From an uncultured Muribaculaceae bacterium (GTDB taxonomy: Bacteria > Bacillota_I > Bacilli_A > RF39 > UBA660): a stretch of 60,454 bases of DNA. This document shows positions 2,856-19,295 of the stretch, in pieces; position 1 is the first letter of the stretch, and each line of letters opens with the position of its first letter. The position numbers and the translations under genes are program-made. Below the pieces are notes generated by a model. The model ran no database searches. It was not told the origin of the DNA and saw nothing but the letters and a program-made list of their open reading frames with translations. The stretch covers positions 1-60,454 of the forward strand of contig CAYRLX010000005.1 of assembly GCA_964425325.1 (NCBI GenBank), written 5' to 3'.

Positions 2856-2865
2856 AATATACCTC

Positions 2866-3798
2866 CTAATCTAATTCTTTTATATCATAAAAATTACTAG
2901 GGAAACCAATCTTATTTAATATAGTATTCAAAGGAACAGTACTAATCTTTTCATCAAGCAAATCAACTTCATTTTTAATTTCATCAATCATCAAAGAAAA
3001 CTCATTATGAGTAAGCATGTACTTTAAAATAATAACTAAACTAAATAAATCGTTTTTTCCATATAAATATTCATCTTCTTCTTTTTGAATATCAAGTAAT
3101 TTATGGTATTCACAGTCGGGAATACTTCTTTGAACCCTATGATCATATAAAATATCTTCATGAGCACAGACATTCCTAAAATTAGATAGTAATGACAAAT
3201 AAATTCTTAAAGTTTCAGTATCCAAACTATAAGCCTTAGCAATCTCTTCCTTATCCTCTATCTTTAAGATATCATAAAATTCACTCATAATACCAAAAGA
3301 TAGTACTTTAACTAAAATCCAAAGTGGAATAAAACCATAATTATTTATATAGTGATAAGTTGCTGTATGCTTACTACCATTTATTCTAATCTGTCTTCTA
3401 ACCTTATTTAAAACGTCACGAACTTGTCTAGCCTGCAAACCATCAGAAGAGAAATTCTTTACATCTAGATAGTCTTTTTCCTTATAACCATACTTCTTAG
3501 ATAGTTGATAACTCATAATAGACTTAATATTGTTTTCCACAATTAAAATATTTTTAAAAAATATATTTCTTATTCTACGGTCAAATACAAAAGTAGCATA
3601 TAATTCCTCAAAAGTAGTTCCTTCTATAAATAAATCCTTTTTACCATTTTGAGTAAACAAATGACGATAACCACTAATAAAAAAATAATTTTCTCTAAAA
3701 AGAATTTGTCTAGCTCTCTCTTCATCATCAACTAAAAGACCTCTTCTTTTAAAAATATCAACTTGTTCATCCAATGTTCTAAATATCTTACCTGTCAC
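2866..3798 (-). CDS. Abi_2 (AbiD/AbiF-like) abortive-infection protein, HEPN type
   Basis: 310 aa. The N-terminus TLDEQVDIFKRRGLLVDDEE and YFFISGY are typical of Abi_2. Rx4H HEPN motif in FRNVCAHED. GTG start follows AGGTGG. Confidence 0.75.
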   Translation of the reverse strand: MTGKIFRTLDEQVDIFKRRGLLVDDEERARQILFRENYFFISGYRHLFTQNGKKDLFIEGTTFEELYATFVFDRRIRNIFFKNILIVENNIKSIMSYQLSKKYGYKEKDYLDVKNFSSDGLQARQVRDVLNKVRRQIRINGSKHTATYHYINNYGFIPLWILVKVLSFGIMSEFYDILKIEDKEEIAKAYSLDTETLRIYLSLLSNFRNVCAHEDILYDHRVQRSIPDCEYHKLLDIQKEEDEYLYGKNDLFSLVIILKYMLTHNEFSLMIDEIKNEVDLLDEKISTVPLNTILNKIGFPSNFYDIKELD

Positions 3799-3845
3799 AT
3801 TACCACCTATCTTACATTATAACACAAAAAAGAAACTTTATTTAA

Positions 3846-4508
3846 TTAAGTTTCAAAATATTTATAAATACCTTCTTTAATAACATTTACAAGTTTATTT
3901 TGGTATACATCACTAGTAAGCAAAGATCTTTCACTAGAGTTAGATAAAAAGCCAACTTCTAATAAAACACCAGGCCTATTAATTCTCCTTTGCAAATACT
4001 TCGTACTGTTTTCTTTAAAATTTCTATTACTACTCAAATGCCTATTAAATTCTTCTTGAAAAATAGAAGCAATTTTTTCATTTTCAGGATTAATAGTATC
4101 AAAGTATGCCTCAGCACCACGAAGAACACCACTATCATCAGCATTTAAATGAATAGACAAATATAAATCACAATTAGACTTGTTAATTATATTAGCTCTT
4201 CTAGATAAATCACTTCTTTTCCTATTCCATGCATCAGGAGTAGATAAATCATAATCACCATATCTAGTAAGATATACTGTAGCTCCTTCTTTTTTAAGCA
4301 CGTCCATAAGCTTAATACTAATTTCTAAATTAACATCAGACTCTTTAACATTCTTATAATAAGCTCCGCAGTCAGCACCACCATGCCCTGGATCAATATA
4401 AATAACCTTAGAAAGTAATTCCTTACCATCATCTTTAGCAAACACTCCGTTTACCAAACATAAAATAATACTTAAAAAGATTAAAACAATATATTTATAT
4501 TTACTCAC
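3846..4508 (-). CDS. cwlD: N-acetylmuramoyl-L-alanine amidase (Amidase_3), CwlD-like
   Basis: 220 aa with an N-terminal signal/anchor, IDPGHGGADCGA and SIHLNA motifs. Size and architecture match the germination-specific CwlD. Confidence 0.75.
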   Translation of the reverse strand: MSKYKYIVLIFLSIILCLVNGVFAKDDGKELLSKVIYIDPGHGGADCGAYYKNVKESDVNLEISIKLMDVLKKEGATVYLTRYGDYDLSTPDAWNRKRSDLSRRANIINKSNCDLYLSIHLNADDSGVLRGAEAYFDTINPENEKIASIFQEEFNRHLSSNRNFKENSTKYLQRRINRPGVLLEVGFLSNSSERSLLTSDVYQNKLVNVIKEGIYKYFET

Positions 4509-4575
4509 AAAACCACCTATATAAATATATGATTATAAATAATAATTAATTAAAAAAAACAAGCTAAAAGCTTGC

Positions 4576-5148
4576 TTAAACTAAATAACCAATGACAACA
4601 AGCTGCTTATCTTGACCTTTGCATGTTATCATCGTAATTGTACTTCTATTTTTATCTCTTTTTATTGAAACCTTACCTGTTTTTAAAACATCATACTTAT
4701 CTGAAATAATATATTTATAATCATTTTTTAAGTAATTTACAAAAACTTCATCACCAATTTCTAACTTATCCAAATCATGAAAATAAGCAATAGAAGAAAA
4801 ACCACTATGAGCAGCTAATATAAAATTACCATTAACCTCATCTGGCATATTAGATTCTTTTATTATCTGAATATTTTTATCCACAGTATTTTTACTAGAA
4901 TTAAGAGGATACAAATTTCTATTAATTCTAATTTTAGGAATCCTCACACTAGCAAACACCTCTTCTTTTTTATTATCTTCAGGGATAGAAATATTAGTAG
5001 AATCAGCATTAGTCTCAGAACTATTATGAGAATTTTTAACAATATTTACATTATCAATTTTATGATAAGAATAAATATTGCTTAAACAATATACATATAT
5101 AAAAATAATAAAGGAAATTAATAAAAATCTAACTAACTTTAATCGCAT
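4576..5148 (-). CDS. sortase family transpeptidase
   Basis: 190 aa with an N-terminal TM anchor, LAAHSG histidine motif and TMITC catalytic cysteine motif (TLxTC-like). Overlaps the upstream substrate gene by 20 nt. Confidence 0.8.
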   Translation of the reverse strand: MRLKLVRFLLISFIIFIYVYCLSNIYSYHKIDNVNIVKNSHNSSETNADSTNISIPEDNKKEEVFASVRIPKIRINRNLYPLNSSKNTVDKNIQIIKESNMPDEVNGNFILAAHSGFSSIAYFHDLDKLEIGDEVFVNYLKNDYKYIISDKYDVLKTGKVSIKRDKNRSTITMITCKGQDKQLVVIGYLV

Positions 5149-6116: not shown

Positions 6117-6767
6117 CTAATTTTTAAACAAATTAAAAGGATATCTTGAAGGCAAAGGAAGAGAAAAAGTCAAATATTCATGCGTAGTAGGATGATAAAA
6201 TGACACTTTATAAGCAAATAAAGCAATATCATCTAAAGAAGCATTATCATTATACTTCTGATCTCCATATAAAGGAAATCCATGATGAGAAAATTGAACT
6301 CTTATCTGATGACTTCTTCCAGTTTTTAAATTAATATCAACCAAGGATAACCCATTTTTAAAACCTTTTTTTACAAAAGAAAGTTCAGCATCCTTACCAT
6401 CTTTAGAAATAAAACTCTTATTTAACTTAGCATTCTTAAGAATTTTATCATTATAAACACCAGAAGAATCTATATTACCACATACCACCGCATAATAGCT
6501 TTTTTTAAATTCATGATTAGCAATCTGACTAGAAAGCCTTTTCGCACCCTTACTAGTTTTAGCAAAAACCATAATTCCAGAAACAGGTCTATCAAGTCTA
6601 TGAACAAGACCTAAATAAACATTTCCAGGTTTATTATATTTTTTCTTTATATAATTTTTAAGCATGCTTAAAAAATCAATATCACCACTTTTGTCAGCTT
6701 GAACAGGAATACCTATAGGTTTAACAACTATAAGAAGATGATTATCTTCATATATTACATCAATCAT
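6117..6767 (-). CDS. RluA-family pseudouridine synthase (no S4 domain)
   Basis: HRLDRPVSG catalytic motif. N-terminus MIDVIYEDNHLLIVVKP is typical. The ATG at 6767 is preferred over the upstream GTG at 6794. Confidence 0.85.
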   Translation of the reverse strand: MIDVIYEDNHLLIVVKPIGIPVQADKSGDIDFLSMLKNYIKKKYNKPGNVYLGLVHRLDRPVSGIMVFAKTSKGAKRLSSQIANHEFKKSYYAVVCGNIDSSGVYNDKILKNAKLNKSFISKDGKDAELSFVKKGFKNGLSLVDINLKTGRSHQIRVQFSHHGFPLYGDQKYNDNASLDDIALFAYKVSFYHPTTHEYLTFSLPLPSRYPFNLFKN

Positions 6768-7632
6768 TACTTTCCCATCTTCCGTATATTCCACAAGGTA
6801 AAACCAAATTATTTTTAGTAATTTTAAGACCTACTTCACCAGAATCAATTTTACCATTAGGATAAAGTGGAAGCATCATTGTCTTAAGCATATTAGCAAG
6901 AACTATATTAGAAATCCCAGTAGTGTAAGAATTTATAAGCAAAAATAAAGGTTTATCACTCATGATTTTAAGACACTCTTCAAGTAAATAAGTCATATTT
7001 TTTTCAAACTTCCAAACTTCCTTATTGGGTCCCCTACCATAGCTAGGCGGATCCATCACAATCGCATCATACTTGTTACCGCGTCTAAACTCCCTTTGAA
7101 CAAATTTCAAACAATCATCTACAATAAATCTTATAGGAGCATCATCTAAACCGCATAAATGCTTATTTTCCTTAGCCCATTCAGTCATACCTTTTGAAGC
7201 ATCAACCTGGACAACACTAGCCCCAGCCTTCGCACAAGCCATACTAGCAGCTCCAGTATAAGCAAATAAGTTAAGAACCTTTACCTCTCTACCCGCATTT
7301 CTAATCTTATTCATCATAAAATCCCAATTAACAGCTTGTTCAGGAAATAAACCAGTATGTTTAAAATTAGTAGGAGTAACTTTAAAAGTAAGCTCCTTAT
7401 AACTAACAGTCCAGTATTCAGGTAATTTAGAATTAAAATCCCAGTATCCTCCGCCTCTATCAGATCTATGATAAAATCCATCCAATTTATTCCAAGACTT
7501 ATCAAAACCAATACTCCACATAGCTTGAGGATCAGGCCTTCTTAAAATAATATTTCCCCATCTCTCAAGCTTCTCACCACATCCGGCATCTAAACATTCA
7601 TAGTCTTTCCATTCATCACTAATTTTAAGCAT
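6760..7632 (-). CDS. class I SAM-dependent (rRNA-type) methyltransferase, RlmI/RlmK-like
   Basis: FAYTGAAS SAM-binding motif and VMDPPSYG motif IV. ATG at 7632 follows GGTGA; the ORF-track start at 7644 is TTG. Confidence 0.75.
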   Translation of the reverse strand: MLKISDEWKDYECLDAGCGEKLERWGNIILRRPDPQAMWSIGFDKSWNKLDGFYHRSDRGGGYWDFNSKLPEYWTVSYKELTFKVTPTNFKHTGLFPEQAVNWDFMMNKIRNAGREVKVLNLFAYTGAASMACAKAGASVVQVDASKGMTEWAKENKHLCGLDDAPIRFIVDDCLKFVQREFRRGNKYDAIVMDPPSYGRGPNKEVWKFEKNMTYLLEECLKIMSDKPLFLLINSYTTGISNIVLANMLKTMMLPLYPNGKIDSGEVGLKITKNNLVLPCGIYGRWESND

Positions 7633-7704
7633 AAAAATCACCAAAGTTATTATAACATAAATTATAAAAACTATGTTATAATTAAAATAAAAGGATGTGT
7701 CGCT

Positions 7705-10290
7705 ATGGTACTGATTCTAATTATTGCTGTAATAATATTAATAGTAGAAAATGATAAAAAAAATAAAGAATTATTTTCACTCAAAAAACAAATAGAAAAT
7801 AAAAACATAAATTTTTGTCCAAAGTGTGGCTATAATTTCAATGAAAAAAAAGAAACTATTAAAAAGCCTATTAAAGCAGTATCCAAACCAACAGAAAATA
7901 TTAATATAATACAAAATAATAAAAAAACTAAAAATAGTGAAATTAATAATAGTTGGATATTAATAACAGGATCCGTTTTAATTATATTAAGTGCTATAGT
8001 ATTTTTAACTGCAACATGGACTATTACCCATAGCTTTATAAAAACTATAATTATAATACTTATGTTTATAGTCTTTGAAGGAGTAAGCAAAATAGCAAAA
8101 GAAAAAAATTTAAAACAGACATCAAAAACTTTTCATTATATCGCCCTAGCCTACATTCCAATAATGCTTATATCTTTATTCTTTTTCGGATACATTGGAG
8201 AAATTCTAAGGGCATTTAAAGTGGCAAGAAGAATATATTTAACCATAAGTGCCTCTGTTATAACTTACATTTATTACTATAACTATAAAAAAGACAAAAA
8301 CAATATAGTTGCCTGGGCAAGTATAATATCATCAATATTAACAGTAATATGTCTTACCTCTATATTAACATCAGATATAAGATACCATATTATAAGTCTA
8401 ATTATATATACTATAATTTTAGGACTATTATATTTAAAAGATATTTTTGTTTTTAATAATAAAATGCATAAAACAGTAATCGAAACACTAACATGTGCCT
8501 TATTTATATTATCAATTAAAAACAATATAGAACTAATTATAGATAATAAAATTAATATTCTAAATACTATGATTCCTATATTATTCATAGAAATTATATA
8601 CATTTATTTTAATAAAATTAAAAACTACAAAACAGATTTTAATACAATATATCCATTACTTATAATAGCAAGCTCTATTAATTTAACCTTTCTATTTGAA
8701 CCATACATAATAAAACAAATAATAATGTTAATAACAATTCTAGCTATAAATTTTATAAGTTTATTAAAAGATGAAAAAATATCAGAAAGTATGATTATAG
8801 AAACCTTAATCACAATGACATTTATGCACATAAGCGCGACATTCACAAAAGAATTATTTATAGTTCCTAACTACTTAATCACAATTACTGAAACAATACT
8901 TCTTTGGATTACATATCTTTACTCAAAAGATAAAGAAAACATGGCTATGGTTTCTACCGTAGGAATTATACTTAGTCTATTAAATTTAATAATCACAAAT
9001 AATATTAATTTAATAATATTCGGCTTTTCAATTTTATTATTATTAATAATATCGCTATTTATAAAAGAAAAAGAAATTAATAATGCATTTAAAAATATAA
9101 GTATCATCACATTCGTTTTATTCTCACTATCATACTATAATAATTCAATATTCTTAATATTACTATATACTATGTTTATCATTATAACTTTTATCCACGG
9201 ATATCAAGAAGAAGATATTATCAAAAAAATAATTTCTTATATCTATTTAAATCCGTTAATCATCTGGATAATGCTATATTTTAATGTGGATATAAAAACT
9301 ACCATGCTATGTGCTCCTCTATCAGCCACTATAATTACAATACTTGAATTTTTACTACCTAAACTAAAAACAAAAGAAAACAGCACATACATAATTATAA
9401 ACTACATAATCTCAATATTAATTTTTTCCACAATAAATCATACTATATTTAATTTTATATATTTAATATTAATTAACATACTATATATATTATATATAAA
9501 TAATAAAAAAGAGATATATTATTATATAATTCCATTGATATCTATAATTCCTTACGTACATTCAAATATATTTATAATAAATAACATAAATTATATGTAT
9601 GGATTATCATCTTTCCTATTATTGATCTCACTATATTTAAGTTATAGTAAGAAAAATGAATTGTTCTATGCACTATTTTATCTATATTCATTTTCACATT
9701 TCACTGCCTTTAATGACATAAAATATTTTAAATTACTCATATTATTATTAGGAACAATTACAATATATTTATCTGCAAATAAAGGAAAAGATTTTTTTAA
9801 AACACTTATATACTTACTATCATTCTATCTAATAAAACTGTTAATTATAGACTTTAAACTCGAGGAAATAGCATTTATAAACTATGGAGTTATCCTACTA
9901 TTTATTTCACTCATAACAAGAGATATTATAAAAAAACATACAGTTAATTACAAAGTGATTATATATATTGGTTATATTCTTACAAATATATCAGCATTTA
10001 TAAATTATTCATCTGAACAAGACGGAATATTATTTGTATTTTTACTAACACTATTTGTTTTAATTAGTTACACATACAAATTTGGCCCTGAATTTATCAC
10101 ATCAATTATATTCATATTAATCAACGTCTTAATACTAACTAGAACATTTTGGATAAATATACCATGGTACTTATACATACTATTAATAGGTAGCGTTTTA
10201 ATAGCTTTTGCAGTTAAGAATGAAGCATCTGAAAATAAAATTAAAAACAAAAAGAAATTAGATGATATTAAAAAGTACTTAGATCTATAA
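7705..10290 (+). CDS. large polytopic membrane protein with N-terminal zinc-ribbon (CPKCGYNF), function unknown
   Basis: 861-aa uninterrupted ORF in AT-rich DNA with more than 20 hydrophobic segments. Followed by a clean terminator. Confidence 0.6.
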   Translation: MVLILIIAVIILIVENDKKNKELFSLKKQIENKNINFCPKCGYNFNEKKETIKKPIKAVSKPTENINIIQNNKKTKNSEINNSWILITGSVLIILSAIVFLTATWTITHSFIKTIIIILMFIVFEGVSKIAKEKNLKQTSKTFHYIALAYIPIMLISLFFFGYIGEILRAFKVARRIYLTISASVITYIYYYNYKKDKNNIVAWASIISSILTVICLTSILTSDIRYHIISLIIYTIILGLLYLKDIFVFNNKMHKTVIETLTCALFILSIKNNIELIIDNKINILNTMIPILFIEIIYIYFNKIKNYKTDFNTIYPLLIIASSINLTFLFEPYIIKQIIMLITILAINFISLLKDEKISESMIIETLITMTFMHISATFTKELFIVPNYLITITETILLWITYLYSKDKENMAMVSTVGIILSLLNLIITNNINLIIFGFSILLLLIISLFIKEKEINNAFKNISIITFVLFSLSYYNNSIFLILLYTMFIIITFIHGYQEEDIIKKIISYIYLNPLIIWIMLYFNVDIKTTMLCAPLSATIITILEFLLPKLKTKENSTYIIINYIISILIFSTINHTIFNFIYLILINILYILYINNKKEIYYYIIPLISIIPYVHSNIFIINNINYMYGLSSFLLLISLYLSYSKKNELFYALFYLYSFSHFTAFNDIKYFKLLILLLGTITIYLSANKGKDFFKTLIYLLSFYLIKLLIIDFKLEEIAFINYGVILLFISLITRDIIKKHTVNYKVIIYIGYILTNISAFINYSSEQDGILFVFLLTLFVLISYTYKFGPEFITSIIFILINVLILTRTFWINIPWYLYILLIGSVLIAFAVKNEASENKIKNKKKLDDIKKYLDL

Positions 10291-10301
10291 GTACTTTTTT
10301 T
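10273..10301 (+). terminator. rho-independent terminator of the 861-aa gene
   Basis: 9-bp stem AAGTACTTA/TAAGTACTT enclosing the stop codon, followed by a T7 run. Confidence 0.7.
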
Positions 10302-10302
10302 A

Positions 10303-10331
10303 TAAAAAAAAGGAAGGAAGACAAATCCTTC
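10303..10331 (-). terminator. rho-independent terminator closing the minus-strand rpsI-cassette transcription unit
   Basis: On the minus strand, GAAGGA-tttgtct-TCCTTC is followed by a T8 run. Confidence 0.6.
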
Positions 10332-10533
10332 AAGATAAAAACTTAAATTGAATCGACACTAGTAAAATCCAGCCCCAGGATTTTATCAGGCCTTCCCTAC
10401 AATAAAATTATATTAATAAAAAATAAAAACTACAACCAATTTTTTTAAAATAATTAATACTTTACACCATTTTTTACATATATTATAAAAATTTAATCAC
10501 AATATAAAACTATTTATAGATATATAGCACACA

Positions 10534-10632
10534 AAAAAGCCCATAAATACAGACTTACCAAAAAAATTTTTATCTATTACTAAATTTTACTAGGCACTTA
10601 TAGCCTACGTGTCACCTACATAATAGGTCTAT
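10534..10632 (-). repeat. decayed third copy of the rpsI-tail/terminator junction plus the 35-nt cassette tail
   Basis: AAAAAGCCCATAAA..TATCTATTACTAAATT aligns with 11274-11335. CTTATAGCCTACGTGTCACCTACATAATAGGTCT aligns with 11368-11403. The terminator hairpin is destroyed in this copy. Confidence 0.6.
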
Positions 10633-10635
10633 ATT

Positions 10636-11166
10636 TTATTTTTTTATCCAATATCTTCTTGTTAAAAACTTTTCACCGCAATCCTCATTTTCTACTTTAT
10701 TCTCTAATATGCCTCCATTAAATTCAATTATTCTATAAGATCCTATATTATCATCATCACACGTAATTAAAATATTATCTTCTTCAATTATATTTTTATA
10801 TTGTTCTAAACCTAATTTTAATAATTGTTTTCCATAACCCATATTCCAATATTTAGGGTTTATAGCATATCCTATATGACCACCATATTTTAGTAAATTT
10901 TCAGTTAGTCTTATTCTTATATGTATTACTCCAATAAACTTATCTTCATCAACAGCAAAAAAGTCATATGATGGAACATAATTAGAAGGTAATTTTGATT
11001 GATCTCTACTATCTTTAAATTTTTGAATAATGTTATATTCATCAGGATTAAAAAACATCATATCATGTTTTTTAATTAATCCCTCTTCAACTTTCTTAGC
11101 TGACAATAAATATGCTTCTTTATATTGATCTAAAAATTTCTCTTCCGCTTCAATTATTTTTAACAT
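10636..11166 (-). CDS. GNAT-family N-acetyltransferase
   Basis: IGYAINPKYWNMGYGKQLLKLGL acetyl-CoA-binding motif. ATG at 11166 lies 8 nt after AGGAAG; the ORF-track start at 11175 is GTG. Confidence 0.75.
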   Translation of the reverse strand: MLKIIEAEEKFLDQYKEAYLLSAKKVEEGLIKKHDMMFFNPDEYNIIQKFKDSRDQSKLPSNYVPSYDFFAVDEDKFIGVIHIRIRLTENLLKYGGHIGYAINPKYWNMGYGKQLLKLGLEQYKNIIEEDNILITCDDDNIGSYRIIEFNGGILENKVENEDCGEKFLTRRYWIKK

Positions 11167-11334
11167 AATAATCACTTCCTACAATTTATTATATCATAAA
11201 ACCCAAATTTATAGCCTACTCATAGCTAACGACGCTAGTTCCGTTTTAAATTTGAATTTTATAACATTAAAAAAGCCCATAAACACGGGCTTTTTGAAAC
11301 ATTGAAATAAGTATTTCCTATCTCTTACTAAATT
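11166..11334 (-). repeat. cassette junction copy 2: pseudo rpsI 3' end, terminator, inverted repeat, extended -10 promoter, RBS
   Basis: About 90% identical by eye to 12159-12324. Contains the AGTAAGAGATAG rpsI tail (non-coding here), hairpin AGCCC..GGGCT at 11273-11290, TAGCCTAC at 11212-11219 and TGATATAAT (reverse complement of 11188-11196). Confidence 0.85.
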
Positions 11335-11367
11335 AGCGTCCCTTTATTTACGCAGGTTTGTGGGCAG

Positions 11368-11403
11368 TTTGTAGCCTACCTATAACCTACATAACAGGTC
11401 TTA
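11368..11403 (-). repeat. 35-nt cassette tail repeat (copy 1)
   Basis: TTTGTAGCCTACCTATAACCTACATAACAGGTCT, similar to 10598-10632. Lies immediately 3' of the ORF in both cases. Confidence 0.7.
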
Positions 11404-11436
11404 TACATTCTTAACAATATCTTAGTAATTTTCTTC

Positions 11437-12159
11437 TTATTTAGTTTTACCTAATTCTTTATCATAAAAATTAAAAGCATCTTCAATAATATTATTACCC
11501 AATTCAATAATTGTATTATTGTTGGGAATTATTTTTATAAATCCATCAATTCCTAATTTATCATATAGATACTTTACTGCTAAAAGACTCAAATGATATC
11601 CACTGTAATCCTCTGTTTCAAAATCACTACCATGACTTAGAGCATTTAAATTAGGAATACTTTTAGTATTAAATTTAACAATACTTAACCATTTTGTGAA
11701 CTCTGAAGTCATTTCTTTATTATTTTCACCAGAAAAGAATTGTGCCATACCCTCATCAAACCAAACTATTCTCTCTTGATGTTTTCTTCCCCAAACTAAT
11801 TCTTGATACATGATATGAAATAATTCATGTGAAGCATTATACTTTCTATGAATAAATAATGGTGTTCCTTCAATAATATTAGGCTGTATAAAAGCATTTA
11901 TCATACCATTATCAAAAGTTCCTTTAGCATATTCTGGTAAAGATTCCTTTTCCCCCCTTAATTCATAAATATAATTTCTAAAATCTTCTATATTATCAAA
12001 ATAATTAATTTGAACTTTTCTAAACTTGTCTACATCAAATATTTTTTTATATAATTCTAATGATTCATTTAATATAGTTTCTAAATCATTTGTAATATAT
12101 TTTAAACTATCGGGTGAATATAATACAAAACTGTCATTTTCAAATTGTTTTTTATGCAC
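11437..12159 (-). CDS. putative gluzincin metallopeptidase-like protein (Peptidase_MA_2-like)
   Basis: HExxH in SHELFHIMY, followed about 20 aa later by WFDEGMAQFF. GTG at 12159 aligns with the ATG of the neighbouring cassette; the ORF-track start at 12168 is also GTG. Confidence 0.5.
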   Translation of the reverse strand: MHKKQFENDSFVLYSPDSLKYITNDLETILNESLELYKKIFDVDKFRKVQINYFDNIEDFRNYIYELRGEKESLPEYAKGTFDNGMINAFIQPNIIEGTPLFIHRKYNASHELFHIMYQELVWGRKHQERIVWFDEGMAQFFSGENNKEMTSEFTKWLSIVKFNTKSIPNLNALSHGSDFETEDYSGYHLSLLAVKYLYDKLGIDGFIKIIPNNNTIIELGNNIIEDAFNFYDKELGKTK

Positions 12160-12324
12160 AATTACCACATCCTATATATCAATTATATCATAAAACCCAA
12201 ATTTGTAGCCTACTCGTAGCTAACGACGCTAGTTTCGCTTTAAATTTTATAGCATAAAAAAAAGCCCATAAACACGGGCTTTTTGAAACATTGAAATAAG
12301 TATTTCCTATCTCTTACTGAATTG
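12159..12324 (-). repeat. cassette junction copy 1 (contains the genuine rpsI 3' end and terminator)
   Basis: Direct repeat of 11166-11334. TAGCCTAC at 12206-12213 and TGATATAAT (reverse complement of 12182-12190). Confidence 0.85.
12255..12282 (-). terminator. rho-independent terminator of rplM-rpsI
   Basis: On the minus strand, AGCCCGTGTTTATGGGCT is followed by a T8 run, 25 nt after the rpsI stop. Confidence 0.75.
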
Positions 12325-12720
12325 TGGAGCTCTACGTGCACCTTTAAGTCCAGGTTTCTTTCTTTCCTTAACTCTAGGATCACGAGTAACAAAACCAGCT
12401 CTTTTTAAAATCTTTCTATAACTATCTTCCTTACTTTCATTATCTTTGTCATATTCAAGTAAAGCTCTAGTTATACCAAGTCTAATAGCACCAGTTTGAC
12501 CAGTAAATCCACCGCCGTTAACTTTAACAGTAATATCAAATGTTTTTTCGTTATTTGTAGCAACTAAAGGTTGCATTAAATCCATAATATTAGTTTCATA
12601 TGGGAAGAATTCTCTTACATCTCTTCCATTAACTGTAATATTACCTTTACCAGGTACCATTACAACTTGTGCGATAGAAGCTTTTCTTCTACCAGTTCCT
12701 TTAAAAATTCTTTCTGCCAT
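12307..12720 (-). CDS. rpsI: 30S ribosomal protein S9
   Basis: GTGRRK motif and a C-terminal ..PQFSKR. Confidence 0.97.
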
Positions 12721-12730
12721 TTAAACCCTC

Positions 12731-13162
12731 CTAATCAACCTTAAGCTCTTTTGGTTTTTGAGCACTATGTGGATGATTTTCTCCATCATATACAAATAAC
12801 TTTTTATACATTTGTCTTCCAAGTCTACCTTTTGGAAGCATACCTTTAACAGCTCTTTCAACCATTTCTACTGGATATTTTTCTACCATTTCCTTAGCAG
12901 TTCTTTCTCTAAGACCACCAGTATATCTACTATGGTTATAATAAATCTTATCGTTAAGCTTATTACCAGTAAGTACTACCTTCTCAGCATTAACAACGAT
13001 AACATAATCACCACCATCAACATGTGGTGTATAAGTAGGTTTATGTTTTCCTCTTAAAACATTAGCTACCTTACTAGCAAGACGTCCTAAAGTTTGACCT
13101 TCAGCATCAACAACATACCAGTCTCTTTGAACATCCTCTTTTCTTTGCATGAATGTTTTCAT
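12731..13162 (-). CDS. rplM: 50S ribosomal protein L13
   Basis: 143 aa with a [17 protein letters not shown]-terminus. Lies upstream of rpsI. Confidence 0.97.
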
Positions 13163-13270
13163 ATAAAATTTCCTTTCTCCTTATCACTCGTAAGTTTTCC
13201 CAGGACTTACTCATGTGGGATAAATAAATGTACCAGTACTAATTATATTAAATTAGCCCTAAAAAGTCAA
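13163..13270 (-). promoter_or_regulatory. rplM promoter plus ~73-nt leader (candidate L13 leader)
   Basis: Minus strand has TTGACT (13265-13270), a 17-nt spacer and TATAAT (13242-13247). The leader carries hairpin GTAAGT-cctgggaaa-ACTTAC just 5' of the RBS. Confidence 0.6.
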
Positions 13271-13321
13271 CAAAAATAATATAAAAATAACTTTTTTTCA
13301 CAAAATATATATGGTGATTAC

Positions 13322-14299
13322 ATGATTATAAGACTAGGTTATGTTGCAATAAGTCTAACACTTGACTTAACAACATCTAAAACAATAACATATACATATT
13401 ATTCTAAACTAAAAAAGAATGATAAAATAATAAAAATAGATAGTATTATCAACGAAAACTTACATAATTTAAAACAAATAATGCTATATAATTTTAAAAA
13501 TAATATTCATTTTTATAGATTAAGTCCTAATATAATCCCACTAGCTACCCATCCAAACACAAATATAAACATAGAAAAATACAAAAAACAATTTGAAATA
13601 ATAGGATATATGAGCAAACTTTATAATATAAGATTAGATACTCATCCAGACCACTTTTGCGTTCTAAATTCAAATAAAAAAGAAGTAATAAAAAATAGTA
13701 TAAAGATACTTAAATATCACTATGACATATTTAAAACAATGAATATAAATGGAAAAGCTATACTACATATAGGAGGAGCTTATGACAATAAAGAAAAATC
13801 AATAGAAAGATTTATTAAAAACTTTAAAAAATTAGATAAAAAAATACAAAATATAATCATCCTAGAAAACGACGATAAAATATATAACATAAAAGATACA
13901 TTATATATTTGTGAAACATTAAAAATACCCATGGTATTAGACTATCATCATTATTTATGTAATAACGAAAAAGAAAATATAGAAGATTATATACCCAGAA
14001 TACTAAATACTTGGAAAAATGAAAAATTAAATCCTAAAATACATTTTTCATCACCAAAAAACAAAAAAGAATTTAGAAGTCATTCAAACTACATAAATTC
14101 TCACGATTTTATAAAATTTATAAACATACTTAAAAAGTATAATACAAATATAGATATTATGCTAGAATGCAAAGCAAAAGATGAAGCCATGTTTAGACTA
14201 ATAAGACAGTTAAAATATAAAACAAATTACCATTTTATAAATGAAACCACATTTGAAATTAATAAAGAACATCCTTCAAATAAAGACCTTCAGGATTAG
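13322..14299 (+). CDS. uvsE: UV damage endonuclease UvsE/UVDE
   Basis: 325 aa with RLGYVAIS N-terminus and HPDHF, HIGG, LENDD and DYHH motifs of the UvdE TIM barrel. Confidence 0.85.
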   Translation: MIIRLGYVAISLTLDLTTSKTITYTYYSKLKKNDKIIKIDSIINENLHNLKQIMLYNFKNNIHFYRLSPNIIPLATHPNTNINIEKYKKQFEIIGYMSKLYNIRLDTHPDHFCVLNSNKKEVIKNSIKILKYHYDIFKTMNINGKAILHIGGAYDNKEKSIERFIKNFKKLDKKIQNIIILENDDKIYNIKDTLYICETLKIPMVLDYHHYLCNNEKENIEDYIPRILNTWKNEKLNPKIHFSSPKNKKEFRSHSNYINSHDFIKFINILKKYNTNIDIMLECKAKDEAMFRLIRQLKYKTNYHFINETTFEINKEHPSNKDLQD

Positions 14300-14999
14300 C
14301 CGTTTTACCAGCTTTCTTCCTATCTTTTGCATAAAGAATATCAATTATATCAGCACTTTTTCTCTTGCCTTCCCCAACTTCGAGTAAAATGCCAACCATA
14401 TTTCTAACCTGATATCTCATAAAACCAGTTCCTAAAAAAACAATATTAATTTTATTAACATTCTTTAAATCTCGAGTCAAATTAGTTTGAACAATAGTTC
14501 TAACATAATCATCCTTTTTATCAGTAGCTTTAGTAAAAGACTTAAAATCATGAGTTCCCTCTAAATATTTTAAAGCTCTTTCCATCTCAGCAACATCAAG
14601 CATTTTATTACATTGATATACATAATCTTTTTCAATAGGATTATATTCACCCATATTTATTTTATAAACATATTCCTTAGCCTTAACATTAAATCTGGCA
14701 TGAAAATCATCGGGAACCACTTCTATATTTTTGACATAAATATCAGAAGGAAGTAAACTATTTAAAGCATTTTTCATTTTATCAGTAGTAATCTTAGTAT
14801 TCATATCAAAATGAGCTTTTTGATTTAAAGCATGAACTCCAGCATCAGTCCTACCTGAAGCATGAATAGAAATACATTTATTACCATTAATTTTTTTTAA
14901 AGCTTTCTCTATCTCACTTTGAATAGTTTTTTCTTTAAGTTGCTTTTGATAACCTTTATATCTAGAACCATCATAAGCAAAAGTCATTAAATATCTCAT
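14259..14999 (-). CDS. truA: tRNA pseudouridine(38-40) synthase TruA
   Basis: GRTDAGVHA catalytic motif and MRYLMTFAYDG N-terminus. ATG at 14999 follows GGAGAAGGTG. Confidence 0.92.
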   Translation of the reverse strand: MRYLMTFAYDGSRYKGYQKQLKEKTIQSEIEKALKKINGNKCISIHASGRTDAGVHALNQKAHFDMNTKITTDKMKNALNSLLPSDIYVKNIEVVPDDFHARFNVKAKEYVYKINMGEYNPIEKDYVYQCNKMLDVAEMERALKYLEGTHDFKSFTKATDKKDDYVRTIVQTNLTRDLKNVNKINIVFLGTGFMRYQVRNMVGILLEVGEGKRKSADIIDILYAKDRKKAGKTANPEGLYLKDVLY

Positions 15000-15036
15000 T
15001 ATTAACACCTTCTCCAATATTTTAACACATTTTATA

Positions 15037-15804
15037 CTATCTTACAAAACGATATATATCCTTAACTAAATCATTAATATCATTTCTATAACCTATATTG
15101 ATACTTTTCTTTTTTAAAAGAATATCAGAAAAGTCTACCAACCTAGGAACAGAAATTCCACATTTTTTAAGTAAAGAACTATTTTTAAAAATACTATATT
15201 TATCGGAAATTTCTAATATTGAACCATCGTTCATTAATATAACATTATCACAAATACTATATATTAAATCACTATCTCTACTCACAATAATAATAGTTTT
15301 CTTATATCTTACCTTAAGCAGTCTAATAATCCTTATCACACTATCACGAGTTTTCCCGTCAAGTCCAAAAAACAAATCATCTAAAATAATTACATCAGGA
15401 TTACAAGCTAACACCAAAGCTAAAGATATTCTTTTCTGTTCACTCAAAGATAATTCATATATAGACTTATTTAAAATATTACTATTAAATCCAACCATTT
15501 TAAGTGAACCGCTTATCTTCTTTACAATATTATTAATACCATTTATTTTTAAATTAAAAATAAACTCTTCTTTAATATTGTCATAGAAAAATTGATCATT
15601 TATATTTTGATAAACCATTCCTACCTTACTATCTAAAAATAAATCACCACTACTCGGAGCAACACCACCACTTATTAATTCAGCTAAAAGACTTTTACCA
15701 CTCAAAGAAGAACCTATTACACCATATATTTTTTTTTCTTCTATTTCTAAAGAAACATTTTTTACTTCATCATAATATGAAATATTATCAAGCATTACTC
15801 CCAT
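15037..15804 (-). CDS. EcfA2-like ABC ATPase with degenerate catalytic motifs
   Basis: Walker A GSSLSGKS and Q-loop VYQN are present. Signature is LSLSEQ, Walker B is VIILDD (no catalytic Glu), and the H-switch is replaced (VSRDSD). Sits in the Ecf-typical position upstream of truA. Confidence 0.75.
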   Translation of the reverse strand: MGVMLDNISYYDEVKNVSLEIEEKKIYGVIGSSLSGKSLLAELISGGVAPSSGDLFLDSKVGMVYQNINDQFFYDNIKEEFIFNLKINGINNIVKKISGSLKMVGFNSNILNKSIYELSLSEQKRISLALVLACNPDVIILDDLFFGLDGKTRDSVIRIIRLLKVRYKKTIIIVSRDSDLIYSICDNVILMNDGSILEISDKYSIFKNSSLLKKCGISVPRLVDFSDILLKKKSINIGYRNDINDLVKDIYRFVR

Positions 15805-16568
15805 AAATCATCTATAAGCCTTTCTACATCAAGATACATTTTTTCAGACAAACCATAAAATTTTAATTTTTCAGAAAGCGATATCATAAAAGGAACCTCA
15901 AGTCCATTAGATAAAAAATCCTCACTGTCAAGCAAATGGATATCCTTTTTTAATAAATTATCACACAAAAACATTACCTCTTGACCAATTAAACATTCAT
16001 TTGTATCATTTGTTATATTGATAACACTGCACTTTTTAAAAACCCTTTTTACTTCTCTAATAACTAGATTTTTCTCTAGATCTAAATATGAAAAACAGTT
16101 GTCAATAATAAGTACTTTAGGCTTTAATAAGCACTGTAAAGTAAACATAACTAAAACTTTTTCCTTAATACTTAAATTAACAATTTTTTTATCCAAAAGA
16201 TTAAAAATACCCATTTTCTTTGAAACACGTTTAATCTTCATTTCTATTTTTTCATCACCAATATTTTTATATTTTAAACCATTCACTAATTCCTCTTTAA
16301 CAGTACTTTTACTGAAATAATTTAAATCAGGAGAAACTAGACCTATAATACCATTTTCTAAAGCAGTTTTTATAGATTTATTAAAAATTAAAATACTACC
16401 ATCGTATTTCAAATTATCAGCAAATATATTAAATAAAGTACTTTTACCACTACCACCTTTACCTACAATAGTAATAAAACTACCATTTTTAATACTAAAA
16501 TTTAAATTATTAAAAACGAATGCCCCTTTATAGTTAAAACTCAAATTCCTAACCTCTACTGCATTCAT
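15795..16568 (-). CDS. EcfA1-like ABC ATPase with degenerate catalytic motifs
   Basis: Walker A GKGGSGKST is intact. The Q-loop Gln is lost (GLVSPD), the signature is LSIKEK, Walker B is LIIDN, and the H-switch is ITNDTNE. Confidence 0.75.
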   Translation of the reverse strand: MNAVEVRNLSFNYKGAFVFNNLNFSIKNGSFITIVGKGGSGKSTLFNIFADNLKYDGSILIFNKSIKTALENGIIGLVSPDLNYFSKSTVKEELVNGLKYKNIGDEKIEMKIKRVSKKMGIFNLLDKKIVNLSIKEKVLVMFTLQCLLKPKVLIIDNCFSYLDLEKNLVIREVKRVFKKCSVINITNDTNECLIGQEVMFLCDNLLKKDIHLLDSEDFLSNGLEVPFMISLSEKLKFYGLSEKMYLDVERLIDDLWE

Positions 16569-16633
16569 ATAACCACCGTTTATTTATTATAATAAAAATA
16601 AAACTCTTTTACAATAGAAAAGCCGTTAAATTA

Positions 16634-17200
16634 TTAACGGACTATATTATATTTAATACAAACATTGTTGTATACTTTTTTTAAATACTTCCTTTTTAAA
16701 GCTTTTTTTAAACCATCAGTATCAATTTTTTTTAAAACGATATCTACAAATTCTACACTACCAGGATGCTTAACTACTATATTATCTCTATCAATATTAT
16801 CCCAATATTTTAAAGGTTCATGCTGATTCCAATTCTTTCCTTTATAAGCCATACCTGCGGCCACCTTATCACAAATAGACTCTACAATATACTTATATGG
16901 GATAAAAACACCTATTCTCTTATCTCTACTTAAATCTTCCCAATACTCAAAATGATGCTTATTCCTTCCCTTATGATGACACCATACTGTACTATAGCCT
17001 AGTTTATCACGAGCTACTTTAATTGGACTCTTGTGACCATCAAAGTATTTACAACTAATCCAAAATTCATCATAAGAATACTTAGATAAATCATGAATAA
17101 GTCCCCTAAAAGGTATCCCAGCCATACACGATAGTTTAAAAACATAAAATCTATGTTTATTTACTAAATGAAAATGTTTTAAAATATTTTTTAACTTCAT
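16634..17200 (-). CDS. conserved hypothetical His-rich protein (possibly DUF5662-like)
   Basis: 188 aa with LIHDLSKYS and WCHHKGRNKHHFEYW motifs. The family assignment is from memory only. Confidence 0.45.
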   Translation of the reverse strand: MKLKNILKHFHLVNKHRFYVFKLSCMAGIPFRGLIHDLSKYSYDEFWISCKYFDGHKSPIKVARDKLGYSTVWCHHKGRNKHHFEYWEDLSRDKRIGVFIPYKYIVESICDKVAAGMAYKGKNWNQHEPLKYWDNIDRDNIVVKHPGSVEFVDIVLKKIDTDGLKKALKRKYLKKVYNNVCIKYNIVR

Positions 17201-17201
17201 A

Positions 17202-18365
17202 CTAACCCTTCTTACTTATCTCTAGCATTAAAGGTATTGTTTCTAAAATCGCTTTAGTATTATCTTCAATAATTCTAGAGTACACATGTTTAAAACCTTC
17301 ATCACTACCGTCTATTTCTAAATCCATAAATTGCGAAAGTGGATGTCCTCTAACAGAACCAAGTTCTATAAGTAAACTAACAGGAAATAAAGTTTTTAAT
17401 TTACAGTCCATAGTAGTATATATATCCATCCCATCTAATTTATAATCACAAACCTCTGCATACTTAGAAGCAACCAAATAATTCTTATTAATGTCTTCCT
17501 CTCCAAAATCTTTTTTCCATGGATTTTCTTCATCAGCTAAAGAAAGATAATAAACAATATTGCCGCAGCTATGATAAATAAAAGAACCAATTAAATTATA
17601 ATTATTCTTAATACTATAGTAAAAATCCATTAAAGCTTTATTTTCAGGTTCAATCTCACCAGGATTTTCAAAATAAGGACAACCAACAGGGCCAGGCAAA
17701 TTTCTTTTAATTGTATTTAAATGCATACTAGCATATATCTCTTCGCCATTCTTAACCCTATCTAAAAATTTACCACATTCAATATTACTATTTAAATCAA
17801 CGCCTCTTCCATTACTAGACCAGTTTATCATGCAACCTCTAGGTAGATTATATTTATTAAATAAACTAGACACACTCTTACCAAGCTCACCTTCTAAATC
17901 AGATGGACTGCTATATCTAAACATCCACTCTTGAAGCTTTATATCTTTATCCCCATATTTATTCGCATAATCTCCTTCGATATAACTATTTCTATAAAAG
18001 GTTAATAGGTAAGTCTCAAGAACATCGTCACTTATATCACGAGGAATTAAAGATCTAATAGCTTTAGTTACGATTATAGTCCCCTCAGGGTTTACAAATG
18101 GAATAAAATCTAAAGTATATAAATCAGTATCAATACTAATCTCTCCTTTAGATAACTTCTCCATAAATCTAATTACAAAAATATTACTAATTAATTCAGA
18201 TGCATGAGTACCACCTGTAATAATAACATGATTCTTACCATTACCATAACTATAATGATCAATAGGATACCCAAAATTAGTAAAACCAATAGGTTCACAT
18301 TTTTTAATATTATCTAAAGAAGATAGTAACTCATTCATCTCCTCAAAATCCAATAATTTCTTCAT
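17202..18365 (-). CDS. M14-family zinc carboxypeptidase-like protein
   Basis: 387 aa with an HxxE zinc motif in GGTHASELIS and a later His in FIYHSCGN. Confidence 0.65.
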   Translation of the reverse strand: MKKLLDFEEMNELLSSLDNIKKCEPIGFTNFGYPIDHYSYGNGKNHVIITGGTHASELISNIFVIRFMEKLSKGEISIDTDLYTLDFIPFVNPEGTIIVTKAIRSLIPRDISDDVLETYLLTFYRNSYIEGDYANKYGDKDIKLQEWMFRYSSPSDLEGELGKSVSSLFNKYNLPRGCMINWSSNGRGVDLNSNIECGKFLDRVKNGEEIYASMHLNTIKRNLPGPVGCPYFENPGEIEPENKALMDFYYSIKNNYNLIGSFIYHSCGNIVYYLSLADEENPWKKDFGEEDINKNYLVASKYAEVCDYKLDGMDIYTTMDCKLKTLFPVSLLIELGSVRGHPLSQFMDLEIDGSDEGFKHVYSRIIEDNTKAILETIPLMLEISKKG

Positions 18366-18386
18366 ATAACCACCTATTAATTATAT

Positions 18387-19139
18387 TTACTTAGTCTTCT
18401 TTTCTTGAATCTTATAAGTCATTTTTAAAAGTAACTTTCTAGGAACAAATCTACTAAAAAATAAAGCACATTTCATCTTAAAAGTAGGAACAATTATTAA
18501 TTTTTCATTAAACATACATTTAATCGCATACCTAGCTACACTCATACTATCTATACTCTTAACTCCAAATTTAACCCTAGCTACTTTATTAAATTCAGTA
18601 TCGACAGGCCCTGGACATAAACAACTAATAGATACATTACTACCCATTTTCTTAAGCTCTTCATACAAAGCAGAAGAAAAACTAACAACATAATTCTTAG
18701 TAGAATAATAAGTGGCCATTAAAGGCCCAGGCATAAATCCCGCACTACTACCTACATTTAAAATATATCCTTGATCCTTTTTAACAAAATCCTTTAAAAA
18801 TAATTTAGTTAAAGTATGTAAAGACTTAATATTTAAATCAATCATATCAAGCTCTTTATCCAAATTGCTTTCAGTAAAATACCCACACATACCAAAACCA
18901 GCATTATTTATTAAAATATCTATATCTTCTTTTTTAACCTCTTTATATAGCTCCATACAGTTATAAGTACTAGATATATCTTTAACAATTATTTTAGCAT
19001 TTTCACCAAGTTCCTTTTGTAATTTTTCTAGTCTACTCTTTCTTCTAGCAACTAATATTACTTCATAACCTTCATCTACTAAAACTCTTGCCATATCCGC
19101 ACCAATACCACTACTCGCACCAGTTATTAAAGCTTTCAT
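18387..19139 (-). CDS. SDR-family oxidoreductase
   Basis: TGASSGIG cofactor motif, NNAG, and a YxxxK catalytic motif (YYSTK). Confidence 0.9.
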   Translation of the reverse strand: MKALITGASSGIGADMARVLVDEGYEVILVARRKSRLEKLQKELGENAKIIVKDISSTYNCMELYKEVKKEDIDILINNAGFGMCGYFTESNLDKELDMIDLNIKSLHTLTKLFLKDFVKKDQGYILNVGSSAGFMPGPLMATYYSTKNYVVSFSSALYEELKKMGSNVSISCLCPGPVDTEFNKVARVKFGVKSIDSMSVARYAIKCMFNEKLIIVPTFKMKCALFFSRFVPRKLLLKMTYKIQEKKTK

Positions 19140-19295
19140 ACTATCACCTTACCCCTAATAATTATATAATACTAAAAATCAAAAGTAAATTAAAATAGAA
19201 AAAATATTTAATATCATATAATTTAATTTAAGACAAATATTATAATATTTAAAAACATATAATATTATATTATTATTATCACCTTTTCTAAAAAT

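Follow-up and report, generated by a model that had tools for sequence, protein, structure and literature searches.

A probable tandem array of two miniature integrase-less elements at the 3' end of rpsI in uncultured gut Bacilli

The 3' end of rpsI, the gene for ribosomal protein S9, is a target of integrative mobilizable elements (IMEs) with tyrosine integrases (PMC5704250, PMC5090054, PMC5357655), and integrase-less cis-mobilizable elements (CIMEs) are known to pile up by accretion at regenerated attachment (att) sites (PMC5704250, reviewing Pavlovic 2004 and Bellanger 2011). Here we describe the DNA immediately downstream of rpsI in a stretch of 60,454 nucleotides (contig CAYRLX010000005.1, assembly GCA_964425325.1), hereafter referred to as the window, where two small cassettes are stacked behind the gene. 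Considering the repeats of the locus, its variation among strains and its relatives in other species, it is likely that the two cassettes form a tandem array of miniature, CIME-like elements that lack an integrase, were inserted site-specifically at the rpsI 3' end and have kept complete att arms. An earlier note, made from the letters of the window, did not recognise this architecture as a described type of element; given the established role of rpsI as an IME target and of CIMEs in tandem accretion (PMC5704250), that statement has to be withdrawn.

All cassette coordinates refer to the minus strand of the window, and the loci compared with it are cited by number (L001 onwards). The target gene rpsI (12307-12720; 137 aa; Pfam Ribosomal_S9, 3e-47), with rplM (12731-13162) as its immediate upstream neighbour, ends in a core sequence that is present three times. 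The first copy, AATTCAGTAAGAGATAG (12307-12323), consists of the final 17 nt of rpsI including the TAG stop codon, coincides exactly with the start of homology to cassette copies from other species and would represent the attL core. The second copy, AATTTAGTAAGAGATAG (11318-11334), is a replica of the rpsI end and is non-coding, as had been proposed earlier; the second junction thereby opens with the 17-mer of the first copy carrying T at position 5. The third copy, AATTTAGTAATAGATAA (10570-10586), forms together with a terminator (~10556-10533) the segment 10533-10586, which can be read as attR (B' side) and which aligns at 85% over 34 nt with the terminator of the first junction and at 94% over 16 nt with the rpsI-tail copy of the second. 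A third copy of the rpsI end and terminator had been noticed here and is indeed present; its description as decayed does not fit, the segment being rather a displaced former rpsI end with a TAA stop. It has the TTTTTGG..AAG linker seen in the functional rpsI ends of L008 and L023, and where the functional rpsI end of the window shows TAG followed by cassette DNA, this most distal copy shows TAA followed by a different terminator, as in L003, L008 and L023. From these features the segment looks like an earlier rpsI 3' end, displaced with its own terminator, that predates both insertions.

The core is followed on the rpsI side of each cassette by a junction of constant plan. Junction J1 (12159-12306), the proposed P' arm of cassette 1, is laid out like the rpsI-proximal side of the integrase-bearing loci L306/L283 and L085. 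A linker of 24 nt leads to its terminator (12284-12259) and, past a spacer, to the two boxes GTTAGCTACGA and GTAGGCTACAA (12224-12205, within a stretch reading GTTAGCTACGAGTAGGCTACAAA), the extended -10 element TGATATAAT (12190-12182), a Shine-Dalgarno sequence and the GTG start codon at 12159. Similarly, junction J2 (11166-11317), the putative P' arm ahead of cassette 2, holds a terminator (11293-11269), the boxes GTTAGCTATGA and GTAGGCTATAA (11230-11211), TGATATAAT (11196-11188), a Shine-Dalgarno sequence and an ATG at 11166; from its boxes to the ATG it is ~92% identical to the junction between rpsI and the acetyltransferase gene of L213. With their cores included (12159-12324 and 11166-11334), J1 and J2 are direct repeats spaced 989-994 nt apart, which share two ungapped 66-nt blocks at 98% and 94% identity. 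With gaps allowed they are 87% identical over their full length, the figure being 90% between the rpsI tail and the -10 element and only 68% past it, and a 6-nt indel and several SNPs distinguish them immediately behind the terminator. The recurrence reported earlier is borne out for the whole junction. The alignment of the two 5' untranslated regions up to the start codon, to which the earlier note also pointed, is less telling: the likeness past the -10 element is generic Shine-Dalgarno and leader sequence, and an unrelated gene at 750-783 has a promoter and leader 82% similar to those of the junction. Together with the core and tail copies, J1 and J2 are the sole long non-coding repeats across the 60-kb window, which confirms the earlier observation.

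Each cassette ends in a tail that abuts the next core. Tail 1 (11335-11430), the proposed P arm of cassette 1, contains the hairpin-like GACCTGTTATGTAGGT, tandem boxes GTAGGTTATAG and GTAGGCTACAA (11390-11371) and a 33-nt spacer ending in GGGACGCT; homologous tails follow five other cargos in relatives. Tail 2 (10587-10635; boxes GTAGGTGACAC and GTAGGCTATAA at 10619-10600) appears to be a shortened P arm; set against the full tail that follows the same acetyltransferase gene in L213, it is missing the 5' part as well as the spacer at the 3' end. The common tail of ~35 nt that had been noted is real (85% over 33 nt, 11369-11401 against 10598-10630), with the 16-mer GACCTRTTATGTAGGT confined to the two tails (2 matches against 0.07 expected); its length had been underestimated, since the tail of cassette 1 and its relatives extends over ~100-115 nt. 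A derivation of the tail from the entire junction by decay was discarded, as local alignment against shuffled sequences gave z = 0.4-2.4 and only a 12-20-nt box is common to both. No match to a structured RNA was obtained for the tail in Rfam, where the only signal was a sub-threshold one to SpF51 (23 bits, with the gathering score at 50) that fell on the rpsI 3' untranslated region and terminator of J1/J2, and RNAalifold gave no covariation-supported structure beyond the terminator. As a separate observation, the first ~25 nt of full tails (ATATGTAAAAAATTACTAAGGTA; window ~11420-11436, L023 3483-3510, L006 7661-7690) resemble ATATGTAAAAAATGGTGTAAAGTA, the start of the right border of the variable region (window 10455-10480); this match of the tail 5' end to the right border received no support from BLAST, and the alignment itself is suggestive.

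The boxes tie junctions and tails together. In each case they are tandem 11-bp direct repeats of the form GTTAGCTAyGA GTAGGCTAyAA, and the element that had earlier been described as an imperfect inverted repeat is better read in this manner: the box pair GTWRGYTAYNNGTWRGYTAY has four matches in the window, one per junction and one per tail, which share the orientation of rpsI; 0.07 would be expected. The 8-mer TAGCCTAC (GTAGGCTAYAA) likewise occurs in four exact copies, which bracket each open reading frame (ORF) as had been stated. In either junction the boxes stand 83-102 nt past the core; in the tails they precede it, by 36-55 nt in tail 1 and by 13-32 nt in tail 2. The final bases of the junction boxes are placed as a weak -35 for the cargo's extended -10 promoter. 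Such an arrangement, in which the core is common to element and target gene and has short direct repeats of arm type on both sides, is found in the att sites of arm-binding integrases. On the strength of these sequence features we conclude that junction and tail may be regarded as the P' and P arms of a lambda-type tyrosine integrase att system.

Between these arms lies one ORF per cassette. The ORFs have unrelated folds, and their assignment by the earlier note to an HExxH peptidase-like protein and a GNAT acetyltransferase holds up in Pfam and peptidase matches. ORF1 (11437-12159) encodes a 240-aa HExxH (HELFH) protein which is distantly like the M9 collagenase and flagellinolysin peptidase domains, with weak matches to M9, MA-clan and flagellinolysin peptidases; 474 homologues were found, and those in other species occupy position 1, 2 or 3 behind rpsI. 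ORF2 (10636-11166) encodes a 176-aa GNAT acetyltransferase (Pfam Acetyltransf_3/1, 6e-9) with 1209 homologues. Distant homologues of ORF1 (59% identity, L205-L208) were also seen in an apparent defence island with GmrSD, an ABC/STAND-like ATPase, ASCH, Bro-N, a reverse-transcriptase fragment and a protein kinase, in which the genes are spaced as single units.

Comparison of closely related strains reveals how variable the locus is. Using an exact-protein look-up of RpsI, supplemented by one of RplM (which gave L187), contigs were collected that are collinear with the window on both flanks and wholly different between rpsI and the right border (window 10291-10500). Loci with 100% identical RpsI have at least nine different contents, two of these loci (L010 and L187) being clean empty sites. 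Others hold a small-RNA-like module alone (L001, L007) or with a helix-turn-helix (HTH) gene and a BLIP-like gene (L005), a gene of 170 aa (L009), 287 aa (L003) or 322 aa (L008), a 102-aa gene with a toxin-antitoxin-like module and the 287-aa gene (L002, L004), or ORF1 with a toxin-antitoxin-like module (L006 and others). The window type, ORF1 followed by the GNAT gene, was found in six contigs and is stable in several samples, the window strain being contained in metagenomes such as ERZ28019072, ERZ28655055 and SRR12529046; an exact-protein look-up of the methyltransferase yielded no further haplotypes. The right border itself (10291-10532), which lies outside the cassettes, is 89-99% identical in all ten RpsI-identical loci and directly follows the variable DNA. 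Metagenome-assembled genomes (MAGs) that match the window come from ruminant, rabbit and human gut, and one relative has a 1.34-Mb chromosome.

Looking beyond the species, the same frame is met repeatedly. It consists, in order, of the rpsI end or a copy of it, a terminator, one or more boxes, the extended -10 element, one gene, the tail, the displaced rpsI end and a second terminator, and the different cargos enclosed by it number six or more, spread over no fewer than six species-level lineages. The cargos include ORF1, the GNAT of the window (GNAT_B), a different GNAT (GNAT_A, L202), a Fic protein (L216), a membrane protein of 102 aa (L002) and, in L023, a 280-aa ORF accompanied by a toxin-antitoxin-like module, and the tail abuts the displaced rpsI end for every framed cargo. 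In an alignment of tail and core from six lineages, TGTAG, GTAGnCTA and GTAA are invariant and the junction tail|AATTT(A)GTAAG is constant. The earlier note had taken uniform gene content in all relatives, with repeats occurring nowhere else, to favour an old local duplication; neither is the case.

Whole cassettes have moved between these species. Between AGTAAGAGATAG at 12318 and ~11393 in the tail, cassette 1 shows 86% identity across 926 nt with the cassette at position 2 of L202 (ORF alone 89%); for cassette 2 (11334 to 10631) and the cassette at position 1 of L213, the identity is 92.6% across 707 nt (ORF alone 95.5%). The same pairs of organisms share 67-68% nucleotide identity in rpsI and 72-74% in rplM, and 64-66% protein identity in RpsI; the cassettes being far closer between species than rpsI, they move horizontally. 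The tails do not track the host either, with 74.5% identity within the species (rpsI 98.6%) and 72% between species (rpsI 79%). Positions also shift: ORF1 is found at position 1, 2 or 3 and GNAT_B at 1 or 2; L202 has its own GNAT at position 1 and ORF1 at position 2, L213 has the GNAT of the window directly behind rpsI, and L216 has Fic at position 1 and the GNAT at position 2, with three boxes in its junction. Distal arms are degraded, tail 2 of the window being shortened and the tail past ORF1 of L202 barely recognisable, which fits newer insertions arriving beside rpsI. The 5' limit of the tail is constant for five cargos, and this suggests a single ancestral loss, that is, one integrase-less ancestor that may subsequently have exchanged its cargo.

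Searches elsewhere did not extend this distribution. Scans for the exact frames gave no matches, either for the tail pattern in metagenome contigs or for the junction pattern in genome contigs, the lineage being represented in another contig collection; BLAST of tail 1 with J2 gave no match in PLSDB plasmids or INPHARED phages. In IMG/VR, the tail-end/core pattern gave two chance matches inside coding regions, and none of the 80 matches to a loose box...core pattern had the core or tandem boxes.

Two observations on the rpsI end itself are worth recording. Among the last five rpsI codons of L011-L057, serine codons AGT/AGC and TCA and stop codons TAA and TAG are intermixed across the clade irrespective of RpsI similarity, and displaced rpsI-end copies may differ from the resident end (L023, with TCA in the resident gene and AGT in the displaced copy, and L202); this mixing fits repeated swapping of the rpsI end by incoming elements. 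A reduced form of the array occurs in L188, where four or five copies of the rpsI terminator stand between unrelated genes: near-identical copies (ACAAAGTCAGTTTATACTGGCTTTTT) at 2389-4777 and 7852 separate a 219-aa ORF, Ham1, an ORF1 homologue and a nucleoside phosphorylase from one another. An extended -10 promoter stands behind most of these copies, and a decayed TCA-type rpsI end precedes the second.

The motif and layout of the arms recur in elements that do carry an integrase. A scan of IMG/VR for tandem GTAGGCTAC boxes detected two proviruses in which three to five 11-mers start 14-60 nt past the stop codon of a tyrosine integrase gene. A profile built from these two tyrosine integrases (PF00589) retrieved 80 loci, 51 of them with downstream sequence, and 25 of the 51 have tandem repeats with a 10-12-bp period within ~350 nt of the int stop (most within ~80 nt); in 15 of these 25 the repeats fit the box pattern of the window, for example GTTAGCTACGT, GTTAGTTACCT and GTAGGCTACGT. 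In five loci of the family rpsI lies ~600 nt beyond int and, read in the direction of rpsI, its stop codon is followed by ~30 nt, a terminator, ~55 nt and three boxes, which is the plan of J1 and J2. Moreover, what is probably an intact attP in L242, L264 and L252 comprises four boxes, ~130 nt, a terminator with a 45-nt mimic of the 3' end of another target gene, and two boxes, the same plan as that of the inter-cassette junction of the window, in which tail 1, core copy 2 and J2 together are attP-like. An independent case at rpsI is L085, a Clostridia MAG with a 9.3-kb element (10381-19790) bounded by 35-bp direct repeats that start 12 nt ahead of the rpsI end; the element brings its own terminator and a 391-aa integrase, which lies at its right end in rpsI orientation, and both of its arms bear tandem 11-mers. 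Islets bounded by rpsI-end repeats were also seen without a recombinase, namely a 1.9-kb one with a SUKH immunity-type gene in Savagea (L076, 1383-3351) and a 3.2-kb one with MerR and short-chain dehydrogenase genes (L140, 6287-9555).

These parts can be assembled into a plausible sequence of events. A circular form would carry, at its left (P') end, the 12-17-nt rpsI-end core with a stop codon, a terminator that restores termination of rpsI, two tandem 11-bp boxes and the promoter of the cargo; its right (P) end, which is the tail, would add a further pair of boxes, oriented alike, and then a short spacer abutting the next core. Recombination of such a circle with the rpsI core would leave rpsI joined to P' on the left, and P joined to the former rpsI end on the right. 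A second integration at the regenerated rpsI end would displace the first cassette distally, and the tail 1-core-J2 junction would then formally be an attP. On this scheme the GNAT cassette, distal and with its tail partly deleted, would be the older one and the ORF1 cassette, proximal to rpsI, the newer, so that insertion presumably proceeded in that order. The activity was presumably supplied by an integrase encoded elsewhere, which may still supply it, and the cassettes may be mobile at the present day. Serial site-specific accretion at the rpsI 3' end, which the earlier note had put forward, thus gains support from strain polymorphism, from interspecies cassettes and from arms whose layout and boxes are like those of integrase elements.

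Several points weigh against reading the locus as elements integrated through their arms. Binding of an integrase to the boxes is deduced from their position and motif identity, and the second junction box overlaps the -35, so that part of its conservation could stem from promoter function. In some cassettes (L023, L202) the junction boxes are degenerate or single, and the boxes of the window run opposite to L306-type boxes relative to rpsI, in the same direction as those of L085. None of the 10 candidate ORFs of the window encodes a recombinase, as had been noted before, and the Pfam listings of genes near rpsI in the fetched loci of this lineage contain no integrase; inspection of ORF N-termini, without a Pfam scan, in the large gaps between rpsI and the methyltransferase gene of other species gave no integrase, only metabolic or accessory genes and one TnpB. 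An intermediate that combines an integrase with the exact arms of the window was not found, and it is the arms of integrase-bearing elements that these resemble. Neither a recombination event nor a circle or its excision was directly observed; 1-kb Logan contigs, considered as candidate cassette circles, were rejected because they begin and finish within the shared repeat and are therefore unitig breaks. Additionally, since haplotypes L001, L003, L008 and L009 have no duplicated core or tail, not all variation of the hotspot stems from cassette integration. Finally, there are signs of homologous exchange, as J1 and J2 are identical over ~60 nt, a 16-nt patch (TTTTTTGTGTGCTATA) is common to J1 and J3 in L006, and the length of the rpsI-proximal repeat varies between loci. 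Taken to its limit, this would mean that the frames are nothing other than portable homology and that cassettes were gained, lost or reordered by RecA through unequal or Campbell-type single crossover, never by a dedicated recombinase. The ~60 identical nt would suffice for RecA and the patch is gene-conversion-like; the right limit of the repeat varies, from the terminator in L202, through a point ~45 nt beyond it in L023, to the -10 box in the window; other inserts of the hotspot are flanked by long imperfect repeats too (~85 nt of a small-RNA 3' end in L005, ~30 nt of tail at the toxin-antitoxin-like module of L006); and the failure to find an integrase in the window or beside rpsI in the lineage would be expected. 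Such a process nevertheless leaves unexplained how the first junction between a tail and an rpsI end arose, why the left limit stays constant at 12-17 nt ahead of the rpsI end despite different serine codons, and why tandem boxes of a motif family found next to integrases stand on both sides of the core; moreover, frames of 65-85% identity would be an inefficient substrate for RecA in transfer between species. We therefore consider it unlikely that homologous recombination acted on its own. RecA-dependent recombination between the repeats probably reshapes the array in addition to integration, and homologous recombination could remove or reorder cassettes with no integrase involved.

An old local tandem duplication of a unit of rpsI end, promoter and gene, with later divergence or replacement of one gene, would account for direct repeats 989-994 nt apart and for an array that is stable in several samples. 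It is already contradicted by the content polymorphism, with empty and alternative sites within the same species, and by the contrast in identity between cassettes and core genes, each cassette being more closely matched in another species than the core genes are; the unrelated folds of ORF1 and ORF2 and the different order of cassettes across species (ORF1 at 1, 2 or 3, GNAT_B at 1 or 2) point the same way, and we regard this origin as very improbable. Hardly more credible is a system in which the repeats act as folded single-stranded sites, like integron attC sites or the ends of IS200/IS605-type elements, or as Xer/dif-like sites. Unrelated ORFs of ~1 kb are indeed split by a repeat with dyads, among them GACGCTA...TAGCGTC round the terminator with a matching ATGCTA/TAGCAT change in L002, the TTATGTA of the tail resembles the start of a XerD arm, and TnpB genes lie near in L007 and L011. 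Against this, there are no in-register GTTRRRY/RYYYAAC core sites and no IntI gene, the cassettes have promoters of their own, the putative XerC-side arm is not conserved, the left end has no hairpin and no TnpA gene accompanies it, and the folding analysis described above gave no supported structure past the terminator. The GACGCTA/TAGCGTC pair itself, absent from L023 and deleted in L183, is dispensable, and a role for it as transposon-like terminal inverted repeats was ruled out on the same grounds. The preferred reading, integrase-less CIME-like elements with att arms, could also be carried a step further: the cassettes would then not be decay products; they would form a self-propagating platform of ~1 kb, in which a complete arm-type attP and one promoter-bearing gene make up a unit that exchanges cargo, spreads between species and is inserted at rpsI in series by an integrase provided in trans. 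This is a possibility which we hold with considerable doubt.

Other features of the hotspot and its surroundings were also recorded. At the right border, an RNA-like conserved element with a promoter-like site and its own terminator (window ~10300-10400, minus strand) lies upstream of a SAM-methyltransferase gene or of a reversed DUF2157 gene; it is also found in L187 (1195-1305), L023 (4296-4412), L016 and L020, with invariant GGGGCTGG...TTAGTG(T/C)C(A/G)ATTC, has no match in Rfam and could be a leader or a small RNA. Type I toxin-antitoxin-like modules are present in L006 (~7330-7680), L002 (~7150-7420) and L023 (~3150-3480), in each of which the opposite strand bears a small hydrophobic ORF (e.g. 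MNKKDFLILSLVIIIFLLLFLLFIVLI, MTKREQSLFFIILLLFIILFILMYNMLFK) and a small-RNA-like unit, equipped with a TGATATAGT promoter and a terminator of its own, converges on it; L001 and L007 apparently carry the RNA alone. The 1-kb insert of L005 (reversed HTH_3 and BLIP-like genes), not present in L001, is bounded by ~85-nt imperfect direct repeats (6625-6705 and 7625-7710) that correspond to the small-RNA 3' end and terminator, and could mark a second att-like or homology-driven site within the hotspot. TnpB (OrfB) genes of IS605 type occur in or near the region downstream of rpsI in L011 (10913-11896) and L007 (10786-11952), with no TnpA seen. On the other side of the right border, an 861-aa multi-pass membrane protein of the DUF2157 family (window 7705-10290, plus strand) varies in its presence among RpsI-identical strains and, where present (L002, L009, L010), shows only 68-75% protein identity, and is thus a hypervariable neighbour. 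Elsewhere in the window, at least nine tandem copies of a 75-nt unit (39312-40169; 64-76% identical) lie within a 405-aa ORF (39155-40372) that encodes a repetitive protein.

How genes flow among streamlined, uncultured gut Bacilli is not well understood, and this locus shows single accessory genes being exchanged between species at one address, as ready-to-express units that encode a small metallopeptidase-like protein, acetyltransferases, a Fic protein or toxin-antitoxin-like modules. If the arms are functional, the cassettes come near to the smallest possible integrative element, with an attP of ~235 bp and one gene; they would blur the border between decayed islands and integron-style cassettes, and offer a compact attP/attB pair with a 17-bp rpsI target for arm-dependent integrases. 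Should the cassettes prove to be a self-propagating platform, they would amount to a functional analogue of the integron built on a lambda-type tyrosine integrase in uncultured gut Bacilli with reduced genomes. If instead the arms are mere relics, the locus shows how the scars of an integrase can turn into portable homology that keeps a hotspot variable.

It remains to place the cassettes among known systems. A Xer/dif-like site (pdif modules, or integrative mobile elements exploiting Xer, IMEX) of 28 bp in an 11-6-11 arrangement is not found here, as the right half TTATGTAGG is conserved and the left 11 nt differ between tails; nor do the cassettes have the ends of IS200/IS605-derived palindrome-associated transposable elements (PATEs), the promoter-side end being without a GC-rich hairpin and the TnpB genes of L007 and L011 being unlinked to cassettes. 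Integron cassettes, and the integrase-free arrays known as clusters of attC sites lacking integron-integrases (CALINs), are similar in consisting of unrelated ~1-kb ORFs with a recombination-site repeat between them, variable in content and with the newest member proximal. The window differs in having neither an attC structure nor its core motif (GTTAGCT does not fit GTTRRRY, and an in-register inverse core is absent), no IntI and no attI/Pc platform; every cassette has its own terminator and promoter, with TGATATAAT in each, and the site is the 3' end of a gene with lambda-type arm sites. To our knowledge, integrons have been reported as absent from this phylum. The tycheposons of Prochlorococcus (bioRxiv 10.1101/2020.12.28.424599) share the use of a tyrosine recombinase, insertion at a gene end (a tRNA gene), partial target copies, tandem stacking that pushes older elements inward and degenerate remnants; they differ in target and host, are several kb long and carry integrases, and the available part of that source does not describe single-gene units with complete arms.

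The likeness is greater to elements that use the same target or the same boxes. IMEs of the IMESag-rpsI type resemble the locus in their rpsI 3' end target, their flanking att repeats and their occurrence in Firmicutes, whereas they are ~9 kb long and encode an integrase, a relaxase with oriT, replication functions and toxin-antitoxin genes, in place of which each cassette of the window has one ORF unrelated to mobility. L085 and the IMG/VR family (L228, L230, L242, L306) share with the window a core that starts 12-13 nt ahead of the rpsI end, a terminator of their own and 11-bp boxes in both arms, with the box sequences GTTAGCTAC and GTAGGCTAC identical to those of the window; they differ in carrying the integrase gene and in having hosts of higher GC content. 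Within the IMG/VR family, members with GTAGGCTAC boxes use other targets, members adjacent to rpsI use GTTAGTTAC boxes, and no element unites both with this lineage. With CIMEs, the cassettes have in common attL and attR derived from the 3' end of a gene, here as three copies of the 17-nt core with empty sites in the same species, the absence of genes for integration, excision or conjugation, each holding its single HExxH or GNAT ORF, and tandem stacking by successive integrations that regenerate the target end. They depart from CIMEs as described, which are decayed integrative and conjugative elements or IMEs of several kb, in being units of 0.8-1.0 kb with a single promoter-bearing gene, in having both arms apparently complete with a promoter built into the P' arm, and in surrounding at least six cargos in at least six species with the same arms, which is more like a propagating family than a one-off decay. 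CIMEs, accretion and the rpsI target are thus known, whereas the size of ~1 kb for a single gene, the complete-looking arms, the promoter in the P' arm and the many cargos and species are unusual; the nearest described category is that of CIMEs with tandem accretion, at a known target gene.

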